In this document: piece by piece, positions 4,031-51,654 of the stretch
Position numbering within the stretch: position 1 is the first letter of the stretch
How the letters are laid out: each line of letters opens with the position of its first letter
Source of the DNA: Malacoraja senta
Taxonomy: Eukaryota
DNA: 60,000 nt
Reading direction: 5' to 3'
Assembly (NCBI GenBank): GCA_038087875.1
Contig: CM075989.1
Location: 15,750,001 to 15,810,000 of the forward strand
Translations under genes and position numbers: made by a program
The notes under the pieces: model-generated
What the model saw: the letters and a program-made list of their open reading frames with translations, nothing else
Databases searched by the model: none
Told to the model about the DNA's origin: nothing

Positions 4031-5556
4031 TTATTTGTTTTACAGTGAAACCAAACATGCGGGTACAGCAAGCAGTTAAGAAGGCAAATTATATGTGCCC
4101 TTCGTAATAAAAGTAGTTTGTCTTGCTGCAATTCTATGGATGCTGGTGAGACTCCACTTGAAGTGGAAGTGAGTAGTTTTGGTCCTTTTACCCAAGAAAG
4201 GTTATGTTTGCCAGAGAGGAAGTGCATCTTATTAATACTTACAAAATTCCAACAGAGCTAGACAGACTGAATTTGGGTGACAAGAATAAAGGTTTACACT
4301 TTTAAGTCATATAGGGCAAGATATTTCAGAATGAGATGAGAAATGGCTTTGTGTTTAGATTGGTGAATCCCTGGAATTCACTGCTGCAGAAGGTTGTGGA
4401 GGCCAAGTCACAGAATATATTTTAAAATGAGTTGGATTTATTGCTGCACACATCAGGCATCGAAGGATACGGAGAACAAATAGAAATTAAACTGTTGAGA
4501 GAGAAATAGAGTCATATATAGCATGGAAAGATGCCCCATGCCAACCAAGATACCCAATCTAAGCCAGTCCCATTTGCCTGCATTTGGCCCATATCTCTCT
4601 GAACCTTCCATATCCATGTATCTGTCTCAATGTCGTTATTTGTAATTGATGGTGTTGTAATTGTAATTGTTAATTTAATTGATGTTGTGGCCATGATTGT
4701 ATTGAACGATGAAGAGGCTTGAAGTTCTGAACAGCTTGCTACTGCTGTCTACTGTTTCCATGTTTAATAGACTCAATCTTTATGGAATCCAAATTGTTTA
4801 GAAAAGACATTCCTCTTTCACTATAGAACAGCTCATATTTTGAAATTGTTCCTCCCAGTTGTTCTATGTTGCAAACAATGACTTTGTGAAATAGTAGAGA
4901 CTCTCCTGAGGTGTTTACACAACATGCTCAATGCTCAACATACTTGTTAAAACAACGAGTTGCTATATAATATAAATAAAAGTGAAGATGGAAAGCGTCT
5001 GTTATCTGCCTTTTCAATGGTTGGTAATCTGAGTTCAGATAAAAAAATACTGGGCCTTTGGATATATCATCCGCTGTATAAACAGCACAATGCCTACTGT
5101 TCGTGCCAATGGAATCTGTGTTGACTTAATGTTCTCTTTAGAATCGATGCTGCATAAACACAGGAAGGGAAAAGAATGGAATTTAACCCCTGGGCTGGAA
5201 AGGAAGTATCCTACTCTCCACAATCCGTGCTGAGAGAGTTACCTGACTCCTTGCATTTATATATCGCCTGTTATGAATGAAGTGAGTATTAATGATGCAC
5301 CGATACGTTGTGTAGGTAACATGGAGTCATGGTTTCTATATGGTCATCTCTTAGGGTTTGGGCAAGGCCAATATTTATCACCCAACCCTAATTGGCCTTG
5401 AGAAGTTATGCTGAACAATTAAACCATGGACATTCTTCTAGTGAAGTTTCTTCCACAACCTTGTTCGAGAAGGTGTTCAAGATTTAGACCCGGCCAGTGA
5501 GATATTCTCAAGTTAGGAAGGGGGATTGACTTGAGGGGAATCTGCAGAAATGGTTA

Positions 5557-5705
5557 GGAAGGAACTGCAGATGTTGGTTTAAACCGAAGATAGACACAAA
5601 TGCTGATATCATGTCGGAAGAAGGGTCACGATCCGAAACGTCACCCATTCCTTCTCTCCAGAGATGCTACCTGTCCCGCTGAGTTACTCCAGCATTTTGT
5701 GTCTA
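5557..5705 (+). mobile_element. Penelope-derived short module with an inverted 5' piece
   Basis: GAAGAAGGGTCACGATCCGAAACGTCACCCATTCC...CTGAGTTACTCCAGCATTTTGTGTCTATC. Imperfect TSD ATCTGCAGAAATGGTTA / ATCTGCTGATAATGGTTA. Confidence 0.65.
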
Positions 5706-5970
5706 TCTGCTGATAATGGTTAATCTTTTGCGTAACGCACAAGCTTTGTTGTAGATATCACAGGTCTGGGAGGTGGTGTCGGAGTATCCCAGGTGAGTAG
5801 CTGCTGTGTGTTGTGTAGATGGTGCATATTGTAACCACGGAGGGCACCAGTGTTTAGGGCGGATGGTGGACTGCAAATTAAATGGGCTACTTTGCTCTCT
5901 ATGGTCTTGAGCTTCTTAAATATTGTTGGATCTGCACTCATCCAGGCATGTGGGAGGCATTAAAACACAC

Positions 5971-6177
5971 AATGCTGGAGTAACTCAGCGGGACAGGCAG
6001 CATCTCTGGATAGAAGGAATAGGTGATGTTTTGGGTCGAGCCCCTTCGTCTGAAGAAGAGTCTCGACCTGAAATGTCACCCATTCCTTCTATCCAGAGAT
6101 GCTGCCTGTTCCTTTGAGTTGCTCCAGCATTTTGTGTCTATCTTCGGAGTAAATCAGCATCTGCAGTTCCTTGCTAT
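5971..6177. mobile_element. Palindromic Penelope-derived module
   Basis: Two inverted ~80-bp arms around an axis at ~6048. Perfect 14-bp TSD GCATTAAAACACAC (5957-5970 / 6178-6191). Confidence 0.75.
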
Positions 6178-7059: not shown

Positions 7060-7243
7060 GCAACTGTAGGAATCTTGTGTAAAACACAAGGTGCTAGTGG
7101 AACTCAGTGGTCAGGCAACGTCTGTGAAGGAAATGGACGGATGACGTTTCGGATCGGGACCCTGCTTTAGATCCGAAACATCATCTGTCCATTTCCTCCA
7201 CTGATGTTGCCTGACCCGCTGAGTTCCTCCAGCACTTTGTCAT
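7060..7243. mobile_element. Palindromic Penelope-derived module
   Basis: Inverted arms GTGCTAGTGGAACTCAG...ACGTTTCGGATC / GATCCGAAACATC...CTGAGTTCCTCCAGCAC. Confidence 0.6.
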
Positions 7244-14000: not shown

Positions 14001-15952
14001 CTCCTGCTTTGAAACTGGTGGATCTGATTCTGCCTCAAGACGTTAGCGATGGTTCCACTGAGAGCGACTTAAGATAAAACAACAAAATCACCTTGACTTT
14101 ATTATCTATGTCAATGCTGATACCTTAGTGTTTTAAGGAACGCACTGGGGTAATGAATCTAACAACAGCAAAAGAAGTGGAATCAAAAAACTGTAGACTA
14201 CAGTGTGAAGAATGGTCCCGACCCAAAACAGCACCCATCCGTTATCTCCAGAGATGCTGCCTGACCCGCTGAGTTACTCCAGTACTTTGTGTCTATCATT
14301 GCAAAAGAAGCCCTGGGTTGTAACACAGTGACATATTAACAATTCCTTAATATGTAAGTGACAGGAGCTTGGGATTTCTATGCGCGGTAGTTTAGTGCAG
14401 GAAGCTCGAACTTGTGGTGTGTGATTCGGCTCCAGTCAAGATAGCTTTGCACCCTTCTGCATGGTTGTGGCAACATGCTCATTCAATGATGTGACGAGCA
14501 CTGGGATATTCATGAACTGGATTTGCTGAAAAATAGCCTAAAAATGTCATGTTTTGGTATGTGAGATATAATTATTTTTTTTAAGCATCCCTAGTATTAT
14601 TGCTCAGCAAACTCTGGCCTCAACGTTATTTCTGCAGATATTTCTGCTATAGCGCATGTTTCTATCACGTGAACTAGATATAACATGAGTGATGAATCAG
14701 GGAGCATTATTTGTATTACAGCAGCTGAATTGGTTACAATGCAATTTAGATGATGGACTAGAGATGGAAATTGACAAACAGAATAAAGCTGTCTTGGATT
14801 TAAACTGTACAGGGAAAATAAAATTGCTTCCATGTAACGTCCCGTGATCAGACACCATTGTCTCTTAAGTACACATCTGCTACTTTACTGCCGATGGCCA
14901 TTAAAATTGACAACCAATTGTTTTTATTGACACTTCTGCAAAGAGACTCTATGAAACAATGTACCTTTAGTATTTTTCATTTGTGGTAACAAAAATAAAC
15001 TAAAGACATTGAAAAGACCTTTATTTTTTGATAATTCTATGGGAAATATATCTTGAGTTTGAGTTTAGTATATTGTCACGTGTACCGAGTTACGGTGAAA
15101 AGCTTTGTTAGCCTTTCTGGCCCCTGATCTCCTTTCCCCATTGACAGAATTATCTTTATCATAGATTTTCTGTAACACTAGGTTCCTAAGGAACACAACT
15201 ATCACGTTATAGCAAAACTACCTGCATACAGGGAAGATATTCCTTCAGATAAATATTTCAAAATATACTGCACTTCAGATCCCATTTGTATATTTTCCTA
15301 TATATTTAGCATTCTATAAAGTGATTCAAATATGATTGCTTTTTCCTTCCTGGTTTGTTTTTCATATGAATTCTTTTATACGATCAGATGTTCAGTGAGC
15401 TCGTTGATATCATTTTGCTGCATTAAACGTAAAGTACTGCAGTTGTTGGAAATCTGAAATTGAAGATAAAATTATTGAAATGTGCAGGAAGGAAGTGCAG
15501 ATGCTGGGTTAAACCAGAGATAGACACAAAAAGCTGGAGTAGCTCAGCGGGACAGGCAGCATCTCTGGAGAGAAGGGATGGGTGACGTTTCGGGTAGAGA
15601 CCCTTCTTCGGACAATTATGGAAGTGAAGAGCGAGAAATACTCATTGACCTAAAAATATCATTCTTTCCGCATGCTGCATTACTTTCTGAGTATTTCTGG
15701 AAGCCGGATATTTCATTGAACTAATGGCTGGCAGCAAACAATTTGGGGAAAGAGGAATGACTCAGCATAAAGACCTAATGACTCACAATAGAGATCTTTG
15801 TGTGCATGCTTCCTCAGTAAGCCCAGTTGCTTTATTGCTGATTGGAATATACATTGATAGTTGGCTCCATTGAGATTGTTTTAGCAATCCTTGCCTCAGT
15901 GACCAGAACAGACATGGAATTTATAACCAAGGAATCTTTATAGTTAATTACT

Positions 15953-17625: not shown

Positions 17626-18238
17626 ACACACCTTAATTTATATTATCAGGCTTTATAAATCAGTAATCCAGTGTACCGCTGGGCGAATGGTTTAATGTTA
17701 GGTGAAAGTGGAACCAAGGCTGATAGTTTAATGTTAGATTAGTTAAGATTAGTTTAGTTTGTCACGTGTAACGAGGTACAGTGAAAAGCCTTTGTTGCGT
17801 GCTAACAGGTCAGCGGATTACAATCGAGGTCTCCACAGTGTACAAAGGGAGTGGTCTTACATTATCATGAGTGGTCTTACTTTATCATGTTGTCTATCAT
17901 GATCAAGGGAATAACGTTTAGTGCATGATAGAGTCCAGTAACGTCTGATCAAAGAGAAACCATTTGAAATAAGGCTTAGCAGAGAAGCTATAGTTATAAT
18001 GTATAGCTGCACTAACCTTCTCATATACTGCGTCAGTCATTTTACTGTTATAGCTCAGAAGTGCACGAAGCCAATATTACTTGGCCTCTAGGTGTGAGGA
18101 ATTGTACCGGGTCATCCAATGGCTGGTAGCCGGTTGAGAATTTGCTTTACATGCAAATTAAAATGTTTTGTTATCCCCATTATTTTATGTGGAATAGGAC
18201 AAGGGACATGTCTAAAATGGATTGCCTGTAACTATTGG

Positions 18239-18426
18239 GGAAGTGTGTTGCTCCTGTTCGGTCGGCAACTTGCTCGAAGCGAGCAAGGCATTTGCTAATG
18301 GTTTGCTAGGGATTGGCAAATCTTCCATGCAAAATCTCTGAAGAAGGGTTTTGGCCCGAAACGTTGCCTATTTCCTTCGCTCCATAGATGCTGCCTCATC
18401 CGCTGAGTTTCTCCAGCACTTTTGTC
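18239..18426 (+). mobile_element. Chimeric insertion: ~99-bp copy of nearby DNA fused to a Penelope-derived module
   Basis: 16-bp direct repeat TGCCTGTAACTATTGG at 18223-18238 and 18427-18442. 18242-18340 matches 19213-19275 joined to 19456-19495. 18338-18426 is the module. Confidence 0.7.
18338..18365 (+). ncRNA. Candidate minimal type I hammerhead ribozyme core
   Basis: CTGAAGA-A-GGGT(TTTG)GCCC-GAAACGTT. Confidence 0.4.
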
Positions 18427-18789
18427 TGCCTGTAACTATTGGCTGCTCTGCTGCTTATGACTAATTTCAACTCCAATGTCTGAGTGAGTGTTTCTAAATT
18501 CCTGAAAATATTAAAATCTTTTTAAATCGGATGTGGAGAATATTGAAAGAAGCAGGGATTAATTTGCATGAGAAACGATACACACTCACCTTGCAGTCAT
18601 TTCACACCCAGGCCAGGTTCTATCACACACGGATTCATCAATGTGTGGCCAACAAGGAGATGAAAGAAGCAATCTTGCTCTTCGAGAGTGAGTGCCGTGC
18701 CTCTCACCACACTGCAGGGTACATTAAGCATTGGGTGTTACGTAGGTAAACACAGCAGGTTGTTTTTGCATAATGGAAGGTTCCACAAG

Positions 18790-19020
18790 CAACACAGCGA
18801 TGAATGCCTTGTAACCCAGCTTCTTTGGTAGTCACATTTGAAGGAGAAAATAGCGGGCAAAACTCCAGGCATTCTCCTCCTCCTCCTCATCAGATAGTGC
18901 TGTGAGATCTTTCACAATGATCTGAAGCCAGGGAAGAACCTGGTTTAGCATTTCCCCCAAAGGAATTGGTACTGCACCTGAACATTAGTTTAGATTATGT
19001 GCATAACCATGACGTCAATC
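18790..19020 (-). mobile_element. Degenerate Deu-domain SINE fragment
   Basis: Minus strand resembles the Deu core (AAACCAGG...GAAAGATCTCACAGCACTAT...GGAGAATGCCTGGAG). Confidence 0.4.
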
Positions 19021-19275
19021 TCTTTGAATCCGTGACAAAGAGCTGTGATCAGGCAATGCACTTAAACACAAAATCTAGTCTCCCAAGATTTTCTTCAACT
19101 AATTAACTGTATGGTGGATCCAATCTCTTGACCACCTGTAGTTATCCTGATGACTAGGTCCATTGGATTGGTTCATTACATTGTTTTTAATGCGAGTTTG
19201 ATGCCAACTCCCAGTGTGTTGCTCCTGTCCGGTCGGTCGGCAACTTGCTCGAAGCCAGCATGGCATTTGTTAATG

Positions 19276-19440
19276 TTTAAGAAGGAACTGCAGATGCTGG
19301 AAAATCGAAGGTAGACAAAAATGCTGGAGAAACTCAGTGGGTGAGGCAGCATCTATGGAGCGAAGGAAACAGGCAACGTTCCGGGCTGAAACCCGAAGGG
19401 TTTCGGCCCGAAACGTTGCCTATTTCCTTTGCTCCATACC
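19276..19440. mobile_element. Partly palindromic Penelope-derived module (subfamily with CGCTCCATAGATG)
   Basis: Perfect 15-bp TSD TGGCATTTGTTAATG (19261-19275 / 19441-19455). Inverted arms around GGGCTGAAACCCGAAGGGTTTCGGCCC. Confidence 0.75.
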
Positions 19441-20309
19441 TGGCATTTGTTAATGGTTTGCTAGGGATTGGCAAATCTGCCATGCAAAATCTCTGCACTG
19501 GGAACTGCGGCAAGCTACTGAGCCCAGTTGAAAGCAGGATGGGCCTGACTCTTGCTAACATACGTTTAGCCCCACTTCTCCGTCTGTGCCTGCTGGTTGT
19601 GGTGCCCCACTCTGCTGCATTAGTTTACAAGTATTAACGTCATTTTTTGAAGGTGGCCCAGACAATACTCCTGCTTCCAATCAGTTCTCCCAACAAAGAT
19701 AAACAGTTCTTGATTGCAAGAGGTTTTTGCTCATGATGTAACGGTGCAATGCATTTTCAAGTTGTGAACAGTTTAGTATTTAACTGTTTTTGAATGTATT
19801 GCTTTAATGGCTTCAAATGGGAGTCTAAATCAACCCCTTCATCTGCACATTAACCTTGACAAAAAGTCCGATGTGGGGGGAGGAATGTGCCGCAAAGTCC
19901 TTTGATCACCTGGCAAGAGTAGGAAACATGAAGAGCAATTCCCTGCTCCTTGTAATCCTTGCAATAAGTGGAGGGACTGCTGGAATCCATTTCATGCAAT
20001 TTGTAAGACATGTGGTGAGTGCCTGGGGAGGATCATTGATTGGATTTCTTTTGCTCTCTGGCAGATTCCGACTATACCACGGACCATGCCTCAATTGACA
20101 TCTCTCATGACACGAAAGGAAAAGAAGGAACTTGAAAATGATTTAAATGCCACCCTGCCCTCCATAACCTCTCATTTATTTCATGTGATGAGGTTACTCG
20201 CGTCACGTGTTCCCATCCACTCCGTTTGTGGACGACTAATCGTGGATTCAAAACGCAACAAAAAGGTTGCAATGACAGATAATTATTGATGGGCCTCGCA
20301 GTTCTGTGC

Positions 20310-26320: not shown

Positions 26321-26739
26321 TAATTCCTCGTGACACATTTCTCTGCCCTGTACAAGTGTAGCTGCCACTTCAGTTGCAACAGCAGACTTCTCTCAGTCAA
26401 CAGATGGAATGTTTTCACCCAGCATCCTGTTACACTGAGGGGAGGAAGCTCTGTGCAGCTGATCTGGAAAATTGTCAGGAGACCTTGTGCAGTTTGAGAG
26501 CTGGGCCTCGCTGCACAGATGCTGTGCTTCCCAACCTTGGTTGGACGTGTTCCAGGAGCTTTCTTCACACAGTATTCCCCCTACCTCAGGGCACCTGGTC
26601 AGCCCGCAGTTCCAGCGTACACCCTGATTGCCATCGACTTTAGAGCTGAAATTAGGACACAGAATGTACACACTTTTGCTAACAGCTCGAAGACTTCACT
26701 GGTGCTCCTCCTGAGAACCTGTAACTCTTGGAGGCTCCA

Positions 26740-27670
26740 GGACAATCCCGGCTTGTGAGATATGGAGCCAGATACATTGGCGCGGACCAACAGTGATGAT
26801 AGGTGACAAATCATCCTCCACGATAATCCTCAACACTGGTGCACCACAAGGATGTGTTCTCAGCCCCCTTCTATACTCCTTACACACACTCATAACTGTG
26901 CAGCCAAATCAAACTCGATTTACAAATTTATAGACGAAAGAGCTATAGTGCACAGGATATCAAGTAATGTCGCGACAGAGTACAGGAAGGAGATTAAGAC
27001 CCTCATAACCTGGTGCTAAGACAACAACCTCTCCCTCAATGTCAGCAAGACAAAGGAGATTGTGATCGAAATCAGGAAGCCTTTTTGCCTCCGAAGTAGA
27101 GATAGTTGATAGCTTCAAGTTGTTAGGAGTATATATTTGTCTTGGACCAGCCAATGGCCAAAAAAGCAGATCAATGGCTTTACTTCTTTAGAAGGCTTAG
27201 GAAGTTCAGCATGTCCCCAACAACCCTCGCCAACGTCATAGAAAGTATTTTATTGCGATGCGTCACAGCGTGGTTTGGGAACAGCTGCAACCAGGGCTGT
27301 AAGAAATTGCAGAGAGTTGTGGACGCAACCCAGTCCATCACACAAACCAACCACCCTTCCATTGACACCATCTACATTTCAAGCTGCCTCGGCGAGTTCA
27401 CTCTCTGCTGTCACTCCCCCTTCTCCTTTCTCCCCTCAGGCAAGAGGTACAGATGTTTGAGCTCCCATCTATCTCATTGGAGACCCTCAGACTTTCATTG
27501 GACTTTACTGGACTTTATCTTGCAATAAATATTATTTCCCTCATCCTGTATCTGTACACTGTTCATGGCTTGAATGTAATCATGTATAGTCTTTTTGCTG
27601 ACTGGATAGCATGCAATAAAAAAAGCTTTTCACTGTACCTTGTTACACGAGACAATAATAAACTAAACTA
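26740..27670 (+). mobile_element. Rex1/Babar-type LINE, decayed RT and 3' end
   Basis: Translates IILNTGAPQGCVLSPLLYSL, WC.DNNLSLNVSKTKEIVI, LYFFRRLRKFSMS and KKLQRVV, with frameshifts and stops; ends in an AATAAACTAAAC tail. Confidence 0.75.
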
Positions 27671-35908: not shown

Positions 35909-36712
35909 TTTCAAAGGTTTCAAAGGTTTCAAATGTAGACAAAAATGCTGGAGAAACTCAGCGGGTGCGGCAGCATCTATGGAGCGAAGGAAATAGGCAA
36001 CGTTTCGGGCCGAAACCCTTCTTCAGACTTTTGTCTACCTTCGATTTTCCAGCATCTACAGTTCCTTCTTGATCAAAGGTTTCAAAGGTCTTTTATTGTC
36101 ACCTGTACCAATTAAGGTACAGTGATATGCGAATTACCATACAGCCACACTAAAAAATCAACAAGACACACAACTACATAAAAGTTAACATAAACATCCA
36201 CCACAACTGATTCCCCACATTCCTCTGTGATGGAAGGCAATAAAGTCTAATCTTCTTCCCTCATTTTTCTCCCGTGGTTGGGGCAGTTGAACCATCGGTC
36301 GGGGTGATCGAAGCTCCCGCAGCCGGCGGTCGAAGTCTCCACGACGGGGCGATTGAAGCTCCCGCGTCGGGGCGGTCGAAACTCCTACGGCATGGAGCTT
36401 CTGAAGTCGGTCTCTAACCAGAGACCGCGATGTTAAAGTCCCGCAGGCTCCCGTGGTGGAGATCTCGAAGTCGGTCTCCAACAAAGGCCGCCAACTCCTC
36501 GATGTTAGGCTGCAGTGAGGACAGAGATACGATACAGAAAAAAATCACATCTCCGTCGAGGTAAGAGATTAGAAAACGTTTCCCCTAACACCCTCCCCCA
36601 CATAAAAACAAGCTAAAGAACATTAAAAACATACATTTAACACATACTAAAGAAACAATGAAGAAGAAAGGGACAGACAGACTGTTGGCGAGGCAGCCAT
36701 TGCTGGTGCCAC
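35909..36712 (-). mobile_element. CpG-rich non-autonomous retroelement with a Rex/RTE-like tail and (TTTGAAACC)n terminal repeats
   Basis: The + strand shows (TTCAAAGGT)n, then CTTTTATTGTCAC, then a CpG-rich body with repeated GAAGCTCCCGC / GAAGTCGGTCTC units. Confidence 0.55.
35999..36026 (-). ncRNA. Candidate minimal type I hammerhead ribozyme core (best-preserved copy) in the Penelope-derived module 35934-36071
   Basis: Minus strand: CTGAAGA-A-GGGT(TTCG)GCCC-GAAACGTT; stem II capped by a UUCG tetraloop. Confidence 0.5.
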
Positions 36713-37700: not shown

Positions 37701-38859
37701 GACGTCTGGCCACGTCAGCAATGATCCCATTTTCCTGATGGTTCCCTGCAGCCAGTGGAAGCACTGACGTATGTCAATGTGGCAGAATCTGTCCTGTTTT
37801 TAATCATCTTTACAAAGCGACTCCAGGGTTGCTAGGCATCCTGGAAAAAGACAAAAGAGAATGTACTGTGTTTAGATTAAATGTGTACTGCTGTTGGAAA
37901 TGCCACAATGCCGCCTTTTGTTTTGGTTTATTTTTATCCTTTTCCTGAACTACTAATTGAGCTTCCACTCTTGCTGCAGTGGTTACAATTCCCCCCTTTC
38001 CTTAAACCCCATTTCCACTTGGAATTGATGCCCAGAGACGGACGGAGGGCCAGATGGCATCAACTGGCGGCACTGCCCCTGGAAGGGAAAGACACACCCC
38101 TGGATCAAGCACCAACACAGATTCCCAGGCTCACACCCAGCAACACAGCAGGGTTTGGTTACACTATTCCACCACAATAAGAACGGAGCCGCACCACAGG
38201 CAGGACAATGCCTTCACCCTGACGACCACAACCATTCACATGTCGTGCCAAGGGATCGTTCCAGGATGACGTTGACCAAACTGCACAGAAGCACAAAGTA
38301 AGTTGTAGAGACGTGGTTCACGAAATCTAGCGACGCCTTCAGCTTGTCTCTGGGCAATGGGTGCCAGCGCCGCGGGGACCTTCTCACCCACACGTCTGGG
38401 ATACATGGATTGGGCCCATCCTCATTCTGCTCAGCAGGACCTACATCTGTGTCTGTCTGAGGAGAACCACTTCACAGCCAACAGAAAGCTTTTCCAGAAA
38501 TTCCATCCTGTTACAAAAATAACTTGTCCCCTTCCAGTAATATCTTAAGAGAGCTGTTAGAAGTTTCACTGACAACACAGGGACCAACATGGTTCGCATT
38601 TAACAGTGTCATTCTGGGAGGAAGGAGATCTTGTTGTATTCTGATGCCAGCTGTGCTGAAGGGGATGAGGTACAAGAGGGGCAATAATACAAGGATGACA
38701 GCCCAGCGTGAAGGTGTGGTACCGTACCTGATACAGAACCCAAACACAGCAGGTACTGAAGATTCATTACGTCCCCATGGTTTAATGAAGGCTGGGATAA
38801 TACCAGCGAACGCCTCAGCCAAACCAGATGCGTTGATCTCAGCCAGTGTAGGAATGGAG

Positions 38860-39050
38860 CACAGCAGCACAGCTGGAAGAACCACTGCCTCACCGCTCCA
38901 GCAACCCTTGTTCGATCCTGACCCCGGCCGCTGTCTGTGTGGAGTTTGCAAGTATTTCCCGTGACCGTGTAGGTTCACCCCTGGGTGCTCTGGTTTCCTC
39001 TCACATCCCAAAGACGTGTGAGTTAGGGGGTTAATTGGCTGCTGTCTGTT
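38860..39050 (+). mobile_element. Partial HE1 SINE
   Basis: GTTCGATCCTGAC B box and V-domain GTGTGGAGTTTGCA...GGTTTCCTCTCACATCCCAAAGACGTG. Confidence 0.6.
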
Positions 39051-40212
39051 AGGAGTCTGCCTGTGTCCAATGGCTGGATGTGGGGAGGCTGAGGGGAATG
39101 TGGTGAGGATAAAGTGGATGAGTGCAGGCTGAGTGCAGTGGGATCTCGATGTTGGCTCAAAGCTCCCATATTCTATGTTCCTAATGTTTTAGAGGCACGA
39201 CTCTGAGGGGCGGGGGTGAGCGACTGATGGGGACCAGTTGCAAACACAATCAAGTGGAGAGGGAGGGTTGGGACACGTTGGGAGCTCACGGCTGTGCTGC
39301 CGCAGAGGACAAGCTATTGAGTGGACCTCGAGAATGGCTCCCATTACCAGAGTTGGTGAACAGCTCATGCAGATCTGCCGTAAGTAGCGAGAAGAGTTCA
39401 CTGAGAAGCAGAAACATTTATGACACAGAAGAAGGTTATTTGGTGTCTGTGTTGGTTGAGAGCTGCACAGATCGATCGAACCTTCCTGAAGTGGCTCTGT
39501 GGGCCTGCAGGGTAGAACTCCTCGAGTCCACGGACAAACACTTCTTCAGGCAGTTTCCAGATCCTCACTACCCTCTTTCTCTCATCTCCTGTCTAATCCT
39601 TTTATCAAGTGCTTTTGATTTATGCCCCTGGTTTTAGACCACCTTCCTAAATTCTCATCCCTCATAATTCTATCACCTTAATTAAACCTCCCTTCAGCCT
39701 TCTCAGTTCCAGGGAAAACAACCCTAGCTTATTCAATCTTTCCTTATGGTTAAAGTTTTCCAGTCTTGGCAACTTTGTTATATATCATTTCTGCACCCTC
39801 TCCAATGCAATCACAGCTTTCCTATAATGTGTTTACACAGTACAGGTAATTCTGCTACAACTTGTGTCTCCATAACACTAATTGGATTTAATAAGATTGA
39901 TGATTTAGTGAACACTATTTGAATTATAAGGGCTGAAATTTTTTTAACTGCAGTAACAAAAATAAACGTATAGCTATTAAAAAGTCTTTTATTTTTGCAA
40001 ATTCTGTGGGGAAATATAACTTTGCTATAGTGAGTCTGAAACTCTCTCACCCCTAACCCCCTTTTCCCCATTGACATTATTTGTTTTTATAATATAATTT
40101 TCTATAATGTGAGCTTTGTTAGGAATGCAACTATCGTGTTCTAGCAGAACTGCCTGGACTCAAAATGTGGTATTGTGTGTAATTTTAGTATTATCTACTT
40201 GCATTTGTTTTT

Positions 40213-44303: not shown

Positions 44304-44889
44304 AAAATGAAGTGTTAAAGGCTTGACCATGTAGTTCAGGAAAAAGTCCAGTGAATTTACAGAGACTGCCAAGGTAAGATTCTCTTCACTGTTCTCGTGC
44401 GCTGTACACAAATATGAAGACCTGCTGCCCCAGTTCCCCGTATCCCTGGAATATCAATCCTTCTTTCCCTATTTTTATGCTGCTGCTACAAATGCAATGG
44501 AACATCTCACGATATCTCACCATATCTCCTTCTTTTATTCACGTGCTTACACATTACCTGACATAAGAGGCGCTAAAATATGCCAACCGTACATTAGTGG
44601 GTTGTGAAAAAGAATGTCACTGTGCTGTGCATACAGGACAATAAAGAATCATTGAACCATTGAACGTCAAAAAGACACAAAGTGTTGGAATAACTCAGCC
44701 GGTCAGGTCGCATCTCTGGAGAACATGGATAGAGACGCCGCTTGACCAGCTGCTGAATTACTCCAGTGCTGTTTGTCTTTTATTTCTGTAAACCAGCACC
44801 TTGTTTCTCTCTCTTTCTCTCCTCTCTACCACATTATCATGCTTGCTGACTCTTCCCCTCAGAATACACACTATCCTAAGATACTTTAT

Positions 44890-45720
44890 CCATTGTCAGA
44901 GCTACAACTACACGGTAAATGGTAGCGAATTGAGGAATGCAGTTGAACAGAGGGATCTAGGAATAACTGTGCATAGTTCCCTGAAGGTGGAATCTCATGT
45001 AGATAGGGTGGTAAAGAAAGCTTTTGGTGTGCTGGCCTTTATAAATCAGAGCATTGAATATAGAAGTTGGGATGTAATGTTAAAATTGTACAAGGCATTG
45101 GTGAGGCCAATTCTGGAGTATGGAGTACAATTTTGGTCGCCTAATTATAGGAAGGATGTCAACAAAATAGAGAGAGTACAGAGGAGATTTACTAGAATGT
45201 TGTCTGGGTTTCAGCAACTAAGTTACAGAGAAAGGTTGAACAAGTTAGGTCTTTATTCTTTGGAGCGCAGAAGGTTAAGAGGGGACTTGATAGAGGTCTT
45301 TAAAATTATGAGCGGGTTAGACAGAGTGGACGTGGATAAGCTTTTCCCATTGAGAGTAGGGAAGATTCAAACAAGGGGACATGACTTGAGAATTAAGGGA
45401 CAGAAGTTTAGGGGGAACATTAGGGGGAGCTTCTTTACTCATTGAGTGGTAGCTGTGTGGAATGAGCTTCCAGTGGAAGTGGTGGAGGCAGGTTCGATGT
45501 TATCCTTTAAAAATAGATTGGATGGGTATATGGACGGGAATGGAATGGAGGGTTATGGTCTGAGTGCAGGTAGATGGGACTAGGGGGAAGTATTTATTTT
45601 TAATTTAAAAATAAATAAATAAATAAATAAAATTAAAAAAAATTTAAATGTTCGGCACGGACTTGAAGGGCCGAGATGGCCTGTTTCCGTGCTGTTATGG
45701 TTATATGGTTATATGGTTAT
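44890..45720 (+). mobile_element. Relatively young 5'-truncated CR1/HER1 LINE (ORF2 C-terminal part, premature stop)
   Basis: ORF 44801-45445 encodes QRDLGITVHSSLK...LYKALVRPILEYGVQFWSP...IERVQRRFTRM...SLERRRLRGDLIEVFKI...TRGH, the classic CR1 ORF2 C-terminus. Ends in an (ATGGTTAT)n tail. Confidence 0.9.
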
Positions 45721-46344: not shown

Positions 46345-46932
46345 TTCAAAATATTTTTAAAATATCGAGCACATGAGAGTGGAATATGCTCTCTCTGATA
46401 ATACTGGGATCATTGTTGGGATTGTAACTGAAAACTGATAGACAGATCATTGGGAAATTAATGTTGGAGTTGCCTGTTTAAACACTTTATCTTTTTGCCA
46501 CACATAGTGATAAATGCCAGATTTTCCGTATCAACATCATTTTAATGGTAGAGGTAACATTTATTTTAATGAATTATGATCAGTACTAAAATAAGCCCAA
46601 CAGGAAAAAAGTAGGATCATAGTTCATTATAATTCAGCACTGAAATACTGACTTTTAAAACACATTTATTTTCATTAGTAGAAATGCATTTGCATGCAGA
46701 TGCAGTTAGGGGGTGAGATGCATGACAAACAGACAGACCGATACAGAGACGCACACATATGCATACACAGATGTTGCACAGACATACATGACAAACACAT
46801 ATGGTGCACACACACACACATACACATAAGATAGACACAAAATGCTGAACTCAGCGGGACAGGCAACATCTCTGGAGAGAAGGAATGGGTGACATTTCGG
46901 GTCGAGACTGAAGAAGGGTCTCCAGAGATGCT

Positions 46933-47159
46933 TATCGAATTATTCTTATAATGAGGCTCGTACAACGACGTAATCGGAGTCTGTCTTTATTTAGCAACTC
47001 ACTACAGCAGCTGCCTCGTGCTGCATCCCCGGGCCCTGCTGCTAGGCCTCTCTCCGGTTACGCCCACAGCCCCACCTTCAGGCCGGATGCTGTCACTGCA
47101 GCCTGACCACTGGCAGCAGAATAAAGGCATTCCTTACTCTATTATTCCATAATACCACA
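46933..47159 (-). repeat. 3' LTR
   Basis: Direct repeat of 51302-51528 with one mismatch (47037 T vs 51406 G). Minus-strand AATAAA at 46986-46991. Confidence 0.95.
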
Positions 47160-47172
47160 TCTCCCTTTCTTT
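47160..47172 (-). other. Polypurine tract
   Basis: AAAGAAAGGGAGA immediately 5' of the 3' LTR on the minus strand. Confidence 0.9.
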
Positions 47173-47270
47173 GAGAACAAATGGTGGACTACCTTTGTCT
47201 CTGCAGGTCTTAAGGGGTTTATTCTGCCCTTTTGCTGAAAGACCTGTCCCTGATCAAATAAATCAATAAA

Positions 47271-50200
47271 TCACCAATCAAGTCTCTGCGGCTTTCTAAC
47301 CTCTCTCCCACACCTGGTCCGCACAGGCTCTGTGGTGGGGCCCTCTCTGCTGGGTGATGTTGTCACTGGTGGAGCTGGCTCTGGTGTAGGTGAATCTTCT
47401 CCCACCGGTGGCTCATCAGCATCGACTACCCCACTGTTGGTCTGCAGCGGCACCAAGTGATGCCGGTTCCTCCTCAGTGTGCCCTGAGGCACCTGGACGA
47501 TATAAGAGCGAGGGGTGTTGTGTGTAGATAGCACTGTGCCCTGGACTCGTGCATCGGTGATCCACACATCCTCCCCAGGTACGAGTGGCTCCAGGTTTCT
47601 CGCTCCGTGCCTCTTGTCGAAGGATCTTGCGTCGTTCCTCCTCTTCTCCCTTTCTTTGGCCCCCAGCGCGTTGTAGTCAGGCAAAACTGGATTCAGCAGG
47701 GTTGGAAGGGCAGGAACTGTAGTGCGGAGGCGGCGCCCCATCAACAGCTCGGCCGGGCTATAGCCGTTCTGTAGAGGGGTTGCTCTGTAGGCCAGCAATG
47801 CAAGATATGGGTCTGATGCCTTTGTTAGCAGGTTTTTCACGGTTTGTACAGCGCGTTCCGCCTCCCCATTGCTCTGAGGAAACTTGGGGCTGCTCGTGAT
47901 GTGCACAAAGCCATACTCTGCTGCAAAGGCTTTAAAGTGGCTACCTGAGAACTGGGGCCCATTGTCACTTTTAAGAAATTCCCCAATTCCATGACGACAA
48001 AACATGGATTTCAGGTGCACCACCACATCTGTGGACCTTGTGTGTGTCAGCAGCGCAACTTCCACATACCTTGAGAAATAATCTACTACTAGCAGATAAG
48101 TCTTGTTTTTCAGCGTGAACAGGTCAGCTCCCAAGGTTTGCCAAGGCCTGTCTGGCATCTCCGTTGGCATCAGCGGCTCTTTGACGTTCCTTCTCTCTTG
48201 GATGCAGGTTCTACATTTCAGCACCATGTCATTCAGCTGGCTGCTGAGTCCTGGCCACCATACCGTCTGTTTGGCCCGGCCCCTGCACTTTGTCACCCCC
48301 AGGTGTCCCTCATGTAGTCTCTGCAGCACATCACCTTGTAAGGCTGTTGGGATGACGAGTCTCGTGCCCCGCAGCAGCAGCCCATCGTGCACAGTCAGCA
48401 CTGCTCTATCAGCCCAGTAATGTCTCAGCACTCCCTGCAGTTGGCTTTTGTCGGGCCACCCGTCTGTGCAGTACTCCATCAGTGCAGAGCATGTGCTGTC
48501 TGCCTTCAGGTGCTCACGTAGGCTGCTCAGATAATCTCCACTGACAGGAATGTTGCTGATGACAGAGTCTACATAGATGTTGGTGTCCTCTAATAGGCTT
48601 ATGTCTGTGTGTGCTCTTGCGGCTCTCAGAGGAGCACGAGATAAGGTGTCGGCTGTCCACAGGCTTTTGCCAGGGACATGATTGACTGTATAGTTGTACC
48701 TCATGAGTCTCATCCTAAATCTTTGGATTCTTGGTGGGAGGTCATCCAAAGCTTTCCTTCCCAGCAGACTCACCAACGGCTTATGGTCAGTTTCCAGCTC
48801 GAATGGTCTTCCCAGGATGAAACAGCTGAACCTTTCACATGCCCACGTTGCAGCCAATGCCTCCTTCTCTACTTGAGCATAGCGCTGCTCTGTTGGCGTC
48901 ATTGACCTGGACGCATATGCCACAGGTGACCACATGGCATCGCTCTTCTGCAGCAGGACTGCCCCCAGGCCAAAGGAAGAAGCATCAGCAGAGATCTTTA
49001 AAGCACTGTTTGGGTTGTATAATGTGAGCACTGGTGTGGATGACAGCTCTGTTTTTAACTGATCAAAGGCGGCCTGCTGCTCTGTCCCCCAGTACCAGTG
49101 GTTCTTCTTGGACAGCAGGTCTCGTAGCACTTTGTCTTTTTCAGCCAGGTTAGGCAAGAAGCGGCCCAGCTGATTGACCATGCCCAGAAAACTCCTGAGT
49201 TCGCTGACATTTTTGGGTGCATCCATCTCTTGTACTGCTCTCGTCTTCTCTGGATCTGGCTTCACTCCATCTGCTGAAATCACATGACCCAGGAATCTGA
49301 CTGTGTGGCGTGTGAGCTCACATTTGTCCATGTTGAGCGTAATGCCGGCCTTTTGTGCCTTCTTTAGCACCGCATGTAGCCGCACATCATGCTCCTCCTG
49401 CGTCTGTCCCCAGACCAGGATGTCGTCCATGTGACACAGTACCCCCTCCAGGCCACCGGTCACTTCTGTCACCATCATCCTTTGAAAGTGCTCGGGGGCT
49501 GATGCTATGCCAAAGGGTAGACGGTTAAAATAGTAGCGCCCATAAGGCGTGATGAAGGTGGTGTATTTGGCAGACTCTTTTGTCAATGGTACTTGCCAAA
49601 AGCCCATGTTGGCATCTAATTTGCTGAAGACTGTTGCGCCAGCTAGCATGCCCAGAGTGTGCTCGACAGAAGGCAGGATAAACTTTTCTCTGCATACTGA
49701 TTCATTCATCATTGTGAAATCCACACAAATGCGAACATCACCTGCTTTTTTCGGCACCACCACCATCCCGGCACACCAATCAGTCGGCTCCTCAATCTTG
49801 GTGATTACGCCCATCTTCTCCATACGGTCTATCTCCTCCTTCACTTTTCCCATAAGCGGCAGAGGGACTCTGCGTGGTGTGTGGAGAGAGAAGGGCACAG
49901 CCTCTGGCTTTAATTTAATTGAGTATGGCCTCAGAACAAGACCCAAGCCGCTACACAGCTTCGGATATTGTTGTTTCATTGATTCCATGGTGATGCTGTC
50001 AACCCTGCACACAAGCTGAAGCTGTTCTATGGCAGGCCTTCCCAACAGTGCAGTGTGCAGGTCTTTTACTACATAAATGTTCTCTATGGCTGTCTTTTTG
50101 CCTCTGCGCAGTGTTTCTCTGGCTACACCTAGGACAGAGAGTGCATTGCCCCCTGGCCCAAACAACGGGCGTGTCGGCACTGCCAGGCGCTTCACATCAT

Positions 50201-51206
50201 GCCCCCCTGTAATGTCATGGTACACCTCGGCTGGCATGGCGGTGACATCAGCACCAGTGTCTATTTTAAAGCACACTTTTTTTTGTCTCACTTGTAGCTG
50301 CACCGTCCACGGGTCTTTTCCAGCATCCACGGCTCCCAGGAAAAAGCTCTCTTCTTCCTCTGTAGTGACAGCATTCAGAGATTTTGCACTGTTTCTGCAC
50401 ACTTTGCCATAATGTCCCTTTTTGCCACAGTTGTGACACACAGCATCTTTAGCAGGGCATTCCCATTTTCCATGCGAGGGCATTTTTCCACATCTATAAC
50501 AGGCCTTTGAACCTGGCTGTGGCCGTGTATTAAGTCTATTTTTGCCTGGTGTTTGTGCTTGTGGCTGAGGCTTTGAGGGAAATTTGGGTTTTCTGTAGCT
50601 TTTAGCATGCACAGCATCAACATTAGAGCACTTGCTAGCACCGCCATTTTCTCCTCTTAAGTCAGACCGCTGTCGTCTAACTTCTTCAGACTGCCTTGTC
50701 TTTGTTATCGCAGTTCCAAGGGTTAGGTCTCTGTCTAGCTGTAGCTTTTCTGACAATGAGACGTTTCTCAGTCCGACCACTAACCTGTCGCGGATCAACT
50801 CGTTCTGTAACTGTCCATAGTTGCAGTGTTCAGCTAATCCGTATAGAGCAGTGATGAAGGAATCCACCGTTTCTTCTGGCAGTTGCACACGCTGATTGAA
50901 CTTGGCTCTTTCGTAGATTACATTCTTTTTAGGCACAAAAAATGCATCAAAGCCAGCCTTAACATCCGTGTACACCTTCCTCTCATCTGCAGTTAGCGTT
51001 AGCCCCTTTAGCACATCTTCGGCTTCATCACCCATGCAGTACACTAACGTGTTCACCTGGTTTACTTCCGACGTTGCGTTTAAGTTGCTTGCAAGCCGAA
51101 AGCGGTCGAATCTCCTGATCCAACGCTCCCATTCTTGAGGCTTGGTAAAATCGAATGGCTCTGGAGGTTGTATTGTGAACGTAGCAGTTGGTGTAGGTTG
51201 CGCCAT
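47271..51206 (-). CDS. Gag-Pol polyprotein, 1311 aa
   Basis: Zinc knuckles CYRCGKMPSHGKWEC and CHNCGKKGHYGKVC; protease DTGA; RT RLPFGI...CHMDDILV; RNase H ADASSFGLGAVL...EKEAL...TDHKPL; integrase HEGH...CRTC, ADLF, SDNGPQF, GEAERAV. Confidence 0.95.
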   Translation of the reverse strand: MAQPTPTATFTIQPPEPFDFTKPQEWERWIRRFDRFRLASNLNATSEVNQVNTLVYCMGDEAEDVLKGLTLTADERKVYTDVKAGFDAFFVPKKNVIYERAKFNQRVQLPEETVDSFITALYGLAEHCNYGQLQNELIRDRLVVGLRNVSLSEKLQLDRDLTLGTAITKTRQSEEVRRQRSDLRGENGGASKCSNVDAVHAKSYRKPKFPSKPQPQAQTPGKNRLNTRPQPGSKACYRCGKMPSHGKWECPAKDAVCHNCGKKGHYGKVCRNSAKSLNAVTTEEEESFFLGAVDAGKDPWTVQLQVRQKKVCFKIDTGADVTAMPAEVYHDITGGHDVKRLAVPTRPLFGPGGNALSVLGVARETLRRGKKTAIENIYVVKDLHTALLGRPAIEQLQLVCRVDSITMESMKQQYPKLCSGLGLVLRPYSIKLKPEAVPFSLHTPRRVPLPLMGKVKEEIDRMEKMGVITKIEEPTDWCAGMVVVPKKAGDVRICVDFTMMNESVCREKFILPSVEHTLGMLAGATVFSKLDANMGFWQVPLTKESAKYTTFITPYGRYYFNRLPFGIASAPEHFQRMMVTEVTGGLEGVLCHMDDILVWGQTQEEHDVRLHAVLKKAQKAGITLNMDKCELTRHTVRFLGHVISADGVKPDPEKTRAVQEMDAPKNVSELRSFLGMVNQLGRFLPNLAEKDKVLRDLLSKKNHWYWGTEQQAAFDQLKTELSSTPVLTLYNPNSALKISADASSFGLGAVLLQKSDAMWSPVAYASRSMTPTEQRYAQVEKEALAATWACERFSCFILGRPFELETDHKPLVSLLGRKALDDLPPRIQRFRMRLMRYNYTVNHVPGKSLWTADTLSRAPLRAARAHTDISLLEDTNIYVDSVISNIPVSGDYLSSLREHLKADSTCSALMEYCTDGWPDKSQLQGVLRHYWADRAVLTVHDGLLLRGTRLVIPTALQGDVLQRLHEGHLGVTKCRGRAKQTVWWPGLSSQLNDMVLKCRTCIQERRNVKEPLMPTEMPDRPWQTLGADLFTLKNKTYLLVVDYFSRYVEVALLTHTRSTDVVVHLKSMFCRHGIGEFLKSDNGPQFSGSHFKAFAAEYGFVHITSSPKFPQSNGEAERAVQTVKNLLTKASDPYLALLAYRATPLQNGYSPAELLMGRRLRTTVPALPTLLNPVLPDYNALGAKEREKRRNDARSFDKRHGARNLEPLVPGEDVWITDARVQGTVLSTHNTPRSYIVQVPQGTLRRNRHHLVPLQTNSGVVDADEPPVGEDSPTPEPAPPVTTSPSREGPTTEPVRTRCGREVRKPQRLDW

Positions 51207-51283
51207 ATCTGCCAGCTCATCTCACCTTTCTCCGCCAAAACGATACACTTTCCTCTTCTTCTTTTTTTTTTTCGCTTACAAGT

Positions 51284-51301
51284 ATCCCGTTTCTGACACC
51301 A
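51284..51301 (-). other. Primer-binding site, tRNA-Leu type
   Basis: TGGTGTCAGAAACGGGAT abuts the 5' LTR; 16/18 complementary to the recalled tRNA-Leu 3' end (...ATCCCACTTCTGACACCA). Confidence 0.8.
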
Positions 51302-51528
51302 TATCGAATTATTCTTATAATGAGGCTCGTACAACGACGTAATCGGAGTCTGTCTTTATTTAGCAACTCACTACAGCAGCTGCCTCGTGCTGCATCCCCG
51401 GGCCCGGCTGCTAGGCCTCTCTCCGGTTACGCCCACAGCCCCACCTTCAGGCCGGATGCTGTCACTGCAGCCTGACCACTGGCAGCAGAATAAAGGCATT
51501 CCTTACTCTATTATTCCATAATACCACA
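51302..51528 (-). repeat. 5' LTR
   Basis: TGTGGTATT...AATTCGATA on the minus strand; 226/227 identical to the 3' LTR. Confidence 0.95.
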
Positions 51529-51654
51529 ATGCTGTCTGTCCCACTGAGTTACTCCAGCATTTTGTGTCTATCTTCGGTTTAAACCAGCATCTGCAGTTCC
51601 ATCCCACACACATAAGGGAAGCTTACAAGCACACTAAAAACATACTAAAATAAT

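Follow-up and report, generated by a model that had tools for sequence, protein, structure and literature searches.

A Penelope-type insertion that very probably captured a 99-bp copy of neighbouring DNA, and a sister insertion in the donor

How does a 99-bp copy of nearby DNA come to lie between the same pair of target-site duplications (TSDs) as a short retroelement module, when the donor of that copy is itself split by a module of the same subfamily? This question is raised by a locus in the window studied here, a stretch of 60,000 nucleotides analysed as a whole (Table 1). Insertion A occupies 18239-18426 between identical 16-bp TSDs (16/16) and contains a segment that aligns to 19213-19275 plus 19456-19495, the two parts of a donor now interrupted by insertion B. 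A sequence-only reading of this DNA had given coordinates for insertion A, the copy, the donor and the TSDs, and all of them hold. Alignment also recovers the four substitutions it had counted between copy and donor (18281/19256, 18286/19261, 18295/19270 and 18324/19479) and its 4-bp indel, which consists of four extra donor bases at 19229-19232. The TSDs are as perfect as it had claimed (16/16 at A, 15/15 at B), and the TCTG microhomology at which it placed the fusion of copy and module can be read in the junction letters, 18337-18340 being at once the final four donor bases and the first four of module A. The same module start letters recur in another copy of the module, copy D, at 36027. 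Our data indicate that a cDNA very probably switched onto local DNA during insertion A; the fuller account, in which a separate insertion B later entered the donor, we hold with somewhat better than even confidence.

Table 1. Coordinates of the features of insertions A and B and of the donor in the window.
Feature	Position	Strand	Remarks
Left TSD of insertion A	18223-18238	+	16 bp, identical to 18427-18442
Filler, 3 nt	18239-18241	+	without match in donor
Captured 99-bp copy	18242-18340	+	from uninterrupted donor, same orientation; B target site present once; last 4 nt (TCTG) common with module A
Module A, Penelope-type pLTR-like fragment	18337-18426	+	~90 bp, stops at the family's internal 3' end
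Minimal-hammerhead-like core	18338-18365	+	CUGANGA, one extra base, 4-bp helix II with tetraloop, GAAA, palindromic ACGU, NUH
Right TSD of insertion A	18427-18442	+	16/16 against left TSD; abuts 3' end of module A
Donor, left part	19213-19275	+	48 bp plus left TSD B (19261-19275); includes four extra bases 19229-19232
Insertion B, main arm	19276-19394	-	same-subfamily module including distal tail
Insertion B, inverted arm	19395-19440 (plus-strand arm 19395-19438)	+	head-to-head with main arm, palindromic junction
Right TSD of insertion B	19441-19455	+	15 bp
Donor, right part	19456-19495	+	40 bp, TCTG at end

Insertion A has the anatomy of a retrotransposition-associated templated insertion. 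One TSD pair encloses a non-element segment together with the element, the segment duplicates single-copy genomic DNA and not the element consensus, and its 99 bp lie within the usual size (<250 bp). The tendency of such pieces to derive from within 15 bp of the site, which is not a rule, is not followed, the donor having stood ~770-870 bp to the right of the A target before B was inserted. Within the 60-kb window the two donor halves are the only matches to the copy (blastn, word size 7; E values 5e-21 and 8e-19). An exact repeat of at least 16 nt between a 40-nt and a 300-nt stretch was found at 42 of 5000 random window positions, a figure for which the repeat was allowed anywhere and did not have to abut an element end. 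Base 18239 of the filler is A in all three relatives examined below. The captured segment folds with a z score of -1.84; nine of 200 shuffles reach an equally good fold, and the value carries no weight here.

The donor gives the order of the two insertions. Its interruption by a same-subfamily module that the copy lacks, as the sequence-only reading had proposed, is confirmed by the 15-bp TSD B (19261-19275 and 19441-19455, 15/15 identical), and B splits the donor near its middle (48 / 15 / 40 bp). Since the copy carries the B target once, it was taken from an empty donor, and A is therefore no later than B.

Contigs of four out of 24 listed runs, one from the same species (X20) and three from relatives (X2, X21 and X23), were aligned to 18050-19650 at 85% likeness, with 52,541-122,411 aligned contigs per run, most of the other 20 having shares too small to count as evidence; X20, whose depth is below 5, may be the source sample itself. 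The X20 contigs (18050-18364, 18404-19298 and 19409-19650) show 0 substitutions and one gap relative to the window. Depth over the copy equals that of a single local contig in every run (3.65 in X20, 23.9 in X2, 20.1 in X21 and 7.6-7.8 in X23), and the bins of 18212-18319 are at single-copy depth in X20, X2 and X21, whereas module bins sum to depths of 10^5-10^7 and those of module A (18337-18426) exceed 10^6 in all four runs. At 85% likeness the segment is thus neither a repeat nor part of the element. The two findings that the sequence-only reading had named as fatal to its proposal did not materialise: the copy is single-copy while the module bins reach 10^5-10^7, which disposes of a multi-copy repeat or element consensus, and the contigs of four runs match, with 0 substitutions in the same species, which largely disposes of an assembly artefact.

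Individual joints are covered to different extents. The joint between left TSD A and the copy is spanned by more than 31 letters on each side in all four runs, while the copy-module joint and the right joint of A are spanned by 20-25 letters only, below the 31-letter standard, and in X23 the copy-module joint is not spanned. At B, the left joint is spanned by 40 letters in X23 and by 23-24 in X20 and X21, and the right joint by 32 letters in X20. One X23 contig (contig 25) joins 18285 to 19441 and omits 1155 bp. A deletion allele was rejected, the intervening contig 28 standing at equal depth (7.76 vs 8.02), and the evidence suggests an assembly-graph collapse of the shared ~55 bp. As an aside, this junction has the geometry of a single-strand-annealing deletion.

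The relatives also bear on the age of the two insertions. They are ~5-7% diverged from the window (e.g. 33 of ~690 and 45 of 910 letters). Insertion A with its capture is present in all three and the left junction of B in two, X21 and X23; X2 is without coverage there, and its right-hand contig begins exactly as that of X21 does. The empty sites for which the sequence-only reading had advised looking were not seen in the same-species run or the three relatives, and among the four runs no lineage has A alone or B alone, both insertions being present wherever there is coverage. A 42-bp deletion at a microhomology has probably shortened the plus-strand arm of B in the window's lineage, since the X2 and X21 contigs open with 26 unaligned letters ahead of 19442 that fit an arm reaching the family's internal 3' end.

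The rows listed for the relatives (40 of 118) span 805 bases, with 15 changes on the window's lineage, 21 on the X2 side and 4 ambiguous (~1.9% and 2.6%); among them no relative differs in left TSD A. Of the four sites substituted in the copy, three have the letter of the donor in relatives: 18281 in all three, 18286 and 18324 in X2 and X21 (X23 uncovered). This would leave copy and donor about one base apart at the common ancestor if the relatives' donors match the window's. Such a difference amounts to 0.5% per lineage (upper bound 2.8%) and would place both insertions within one fairly short, old interval before the sampled lineages split; the four substitutions would then mostly have arisen after the species split. 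The X21 donor is without the four extra bases 19229-19232, and no such gap is found for X23 among the rows listed. At 18295 the window has C in the copy and T in both copies of TSD B, and X2 has no row for this position among the 40 of 118 listed; the C seems to be old.

What kind of element carried out these insertions? The family has ~24 module loci in 60 kb, four of them in one subfamily (A, B, 21832 and 35929), and no autonomous RT/GIY-YIG open reading frame was found in the window. By motif and architecture the module is likely Penelope-derived, and any hammerhead-like cleavage of its RNA is putative. The core boxes CUGANGA, GAAA and NUH occur together with a palindromic 15.2-16.2, and the hammerhead-like pattern has three exact matches in the window against 0.02 expected, a number reached by 0 of 100 shuffles. 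Positions 9 and 10.1 are separated by an extra base; column 9 is A in 12 of the 13 copies, and the pair 10.1-11.1 is GC in eight of them, GU in two and unpaired in three. Minimal hammerheads associated with Penelope are described as having an extra base, a G10.1-C11.1 pair at the base of helix II, and a palindromic ACGU (PMC4209133), with a helix II of 6-8 bp and a helix I of 4-5 bp, or 2 bp in a D. virilis variant. Helix II has 4 bp here; 86% of its cells are paired, and sliding the whole structure gives 52% at most. The pairing does not exceed that of shuffles, however, and across 13 copies helix II shows no two-sided changes. Helix I shows just 2 bp, and the fold of the module A monomer has a z score of 0.21. 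Rfam returned no hammerhead match and 0 matches at the gathering score; its 14 sub-threshold matches, mostly miRNA models on the B hairpin, were taken as chance. The 41-bp arms of B form a long hairpin, which draws these sub-threshold miRNA model matches.

An inverted 5' copy with an optional tail at one end is found in B, in D (36019-36070) and in at least three older loci, and the family shows two recurrent 3' ends; the same inverted copy and optional tail are reported for Penelope architecture (PMC8557442, PMC3846280). The family thereby resembles PLE pLTR fragments with minimal hammerheads (Cervera and de la Pena PMC4209133; Craig et al. PMC8557442; Frangieh et al. PMC11167929) both in its core boxes, the extra base before helix II and the palindromic ACGU, and in its dispersed truncated copies with inverted 5' copy, tail, two 3' ends and TSDs. 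It differs from those fragments, as they are described in these papers, in the shorter helix II and visible helix I noted above and in having no autonomous partner in the window. A non-LTR retrozyme, on the definition available (10.64898/2026.07.22.740005), was rejected: the copies are dispersed monomers or inverted pairs, not head-to-tail hammerhead tandems. Head-to-head arms are present at five or more module loci (5554-5708, 5965-6175, 7084-7240, 19276-19440 and 35929-36070), and insertions nested in one another occur in the window.

A model consistent with this anatomy, in which a non-autonomous Penelope-type module underwent target-primed reverse transcription, begins with an endonuclease cut at site A, whose 16-nt stagger the TSD shows. 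The bottom strand would then have primed cDNA synthesis at the internal 3' end of the module, a point at which four of five target bases agree with those that follow in the element, and synthesis would have proceeded for ~90 nt to the usual 5' end. By its TCTG, the cDNA end would have annealed to the top strand ~0.85 kb to the right, presumably by strand invasion, and been extended 99 nt leftward. Release of the cDNA, addition of three untemplated bases and joining to the left target end would have followed, probably in that order. Finally, the sister module B, part of the same burst of activity, would have entered the donor at a time when the four sampled lineages had not yet diverged. The direction of copying follows from the microhomology at the module end and the untemplated bases at the far end; no homology is found where the reverse path, primed from the left target end, would have begun. 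The product is an inert, inherited 99-bp local duplication, and the locus is non-coding and without evident function. The sequence-only reading had ascribed the copy to a switch onto local genomic DNA by the RT or by repair synthesis. The local switch stands, on the single TSD pair, the TCTG, the filler and the single-copy donor, and of the two enzymes, RT and repair polymerase, neither is favoured.

Comparable events are known from L1. Zumalave et al. (10.1101/2024.08.27.596794) report 22 L1 templated insertions, for which they propose a strand-transfer model and which are usually shorter than 250 bp and taken from no more than 15 bp away; in the L1-driven insertions of Mendez-Dorantes et al. 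(PMC11702581), templated pieces lie ~0.5 and 1 kb from the site, as read from the text of Fig. S10B, and other pieces were traced to a second retrotransposition site. In both reports, as here, short (<250 bp) nearby single-copy DNA is joined to the element in one insertion, an SDSA-like transfer of the cDNA strand is proposed, and the ~0.5-1 kb of Fig. S10B is close to the distance seen here. In contrast to the L1 cases described, the present one concerns a ~90-nt Penelope-type module without poly(A) and a germline event common to several species, and its donor lies ~0.8 kb away instead of the typical 15 bp and holds a sister insertion. The capture would work like a known L1 templated insertion in another element class, the defining features being present except for the usual short distance. 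Addition of untemplated bases before a jump is reported for the R2 RT (PMC8857657). In the rotifer Adineta vaga, Penelope elements captured host DNA such that non-element DNA and a pLTR share one TSD pair, and template jumps were proposed (Arkhipova et al. PMC3846280); there the host DNA lies between pLTRs or in an ORF and was moved in trans, whereas here it precedes a single module on the 5' side and was copied from close to the insertion itself. Our search of titles and abstracts, in which subscription literature was sparsely covered, found no report of local templated capture by Penelope-type elements. How Penelope-like elements complete their 5' junction is regarded as an open question (PMC11167929, PMC8557442), and a clean, dated case would provide direct in vivo evidence for cDNA strand transfer onto local genomic sequence at that step.

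In favour of a separate B are the density of modules (~24 loci in 60 kb, 4 of the subfamily, with nested insertions), the perfect TSDs at both sites and a 0.8-kb spacer without rearrangement. Both copies of TSD B have T against the C of the copy at 18295, and X2 apparently shows the same; this agrees with a change in the donor after A and before B, an argument that rests on the absence of a row among those listed (40 of 118), the relatives' donor letters being outside them. Against a separate B, the density of the window gives a same-subfamily insertion into a given 99 bp a probability of 0.0049, or 0.037 if any module is allowed, and the second insertion had to fall within the short pre-split interval (~0.5% per lineage, upper bound 2.8%). 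In addition, B lies near the middle of the donor, A and B have a variant base in common that copies C and D lack, and no A-only lineage was seen. A possible alternative, raised by the sequence-only reading and given less than even probability here, is that both insertions were one coupled event: a second RNP would have nicked and peeled the bottom strand at B, the A cDNA would have annealed to the exposed top strand and crossed the still-empty site, and both insertions would then have been completed. An independent same-subfamily strike on 99 bp is expected in only ~0.5% of cases, and at the 0.0049 background coupling beats chance once more than roughly 0.5-5% of captures of this kind arise by it, or 1.5-27% at higher backgrounds (calculated with assumed ranges). 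Both insertions predate the same split with an ancestral copy-donor difference of ~1 base, the copy is roughly centred on the B cut, and B was apparently primed from both ends, having an arm at each. In vitro, a Penelope protein is reported to cleave each of the two strands and extend it (PMC11167929), which makes it possible that the bottom strand was nicked first; a top-strand-first nick at B would have broken the template. Concurrent L1 insertions and templates from other retrotransposition sites have been reported (10.1101/2024.08.27.596794; PMC11702581; PMC13526784), and synchronous L1 insertions (10.1101/2024.08.27.596794; PMC13526784) likewise involve two insertions in progress that interact; in those described, cDNA ends are exchanged and translocations or inversions result, whereas coupling here would have left a clean local duplication and two intact insertions. 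Two staggered cuts 0.8 kb apart caused no deletion or inversion, which speaks against coupling. The C at 18295, against T in both TSD B copies, would need a copying error or an early mutation of the copy and leans slightly the same way, and the variant base common to A and B is probably an ordinary subfamily variant. Finally, the case is a single example chosen after the fact, and the 23 other module loci screened gave no local single-copy capture. If coupling were true, two Penelope-type insertions would have occurred 0.8 kb apart in one germ cell at one time, with RNPs acting in local clusters and cDNA ends finding their DNA templates at cut sites nearby; the module copies, which number tens of thousands in these genomes, would then preserve intermediates formed in vivo and steadily supply short local duplications.

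There are two further explanations. A nascent plus-strand RNA of the locus, in place of DNA, is compatible with either order of A and B, and we consider it unlikely. The copy has the same orientation as the module, as RNA template switching predicts (PMC13174262), and a broken RNA 5' end would account for both the run-off and the three filler bases. However, no host gene or transcript orientation was found, 260 reading frames giving only retroelement domains in Pfam (E <0.001), and one candidate exon is frameshifted in a relative; a protein search with the relatives' open frames over the donor (one candidate) gave 0 matches. The internal 4-nt microhomology join also looks more like annealing than like an end-to-end jump. 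We regard as very improbable that the 99 bp arrived by some other route, whether a host repair duplication followed by a later module, 5' transduction, a repeat or an assembly error. Copy-and-paste templated insertions without retroelements are described in cancer genomes (PMC7025897), but here there is a single 16-bp TSD pair and no inner TSD, the join sits at the family's usual 5' end, and single-copy depth and matching contigs are found in four runs. The donor is not followed by a module and hence is no upstream flank of a source element; 5' transduction was rejected on its sequence, which runs into unique DNA after 19495 and contains B, absent from the copy. Local cDNA transfer onto DNA at insertion A remains our preferred reading.

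The sequence-only reading had also advised a screen of other module copies for 5' extensions matching DNA within a few kb. Comparison of the 200 bp upstream of 24 loci with the window gave no further case: local single-copy matches were confined to A and B, and the remaining upstream matches of module loci are dispersed repeats. At four other gaps between TSD and module, matches of 7-14 nt were background or module sequence. This screen is a weak negative, most older loci being without a clear TSD and the locus split by an LTR element (46828/51529) being left out. At 14178-14205, 28 extra bases with a short palindrome inside lie between a 10-bp TSD and the module; their best local match is 9 nt, at background.

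Other features were seen elsewhere in the window. On the minus strand, 38514-39188 is a 225-codon open frame with hydrophobic stretches and no Pfam or Atlas match, and may not be a gene. LINE-like fragments lie at 26715-27525, with weak RVT_1 and ALKBH8_N matches, and at 44792-45442, where a 217-aa frame without Pfam match looks like a CR1-type C-terminus. A young Ty3/gypsy-type LTR retrotransposon occupies 46933-51528 on the minus strand, with LTRs at 46933-47159 and 51302-51528 that are 99.6% identical over 227 bp, a 5-bp target duplication and a single frame of 1315 aa in which RT, RNase H and integrase domains are recognised. It interrupts an older hammerhead-like module (46828-46932 / 51529-51610) within the inverted arm, and its LTR appears to finish in TA, not CA.
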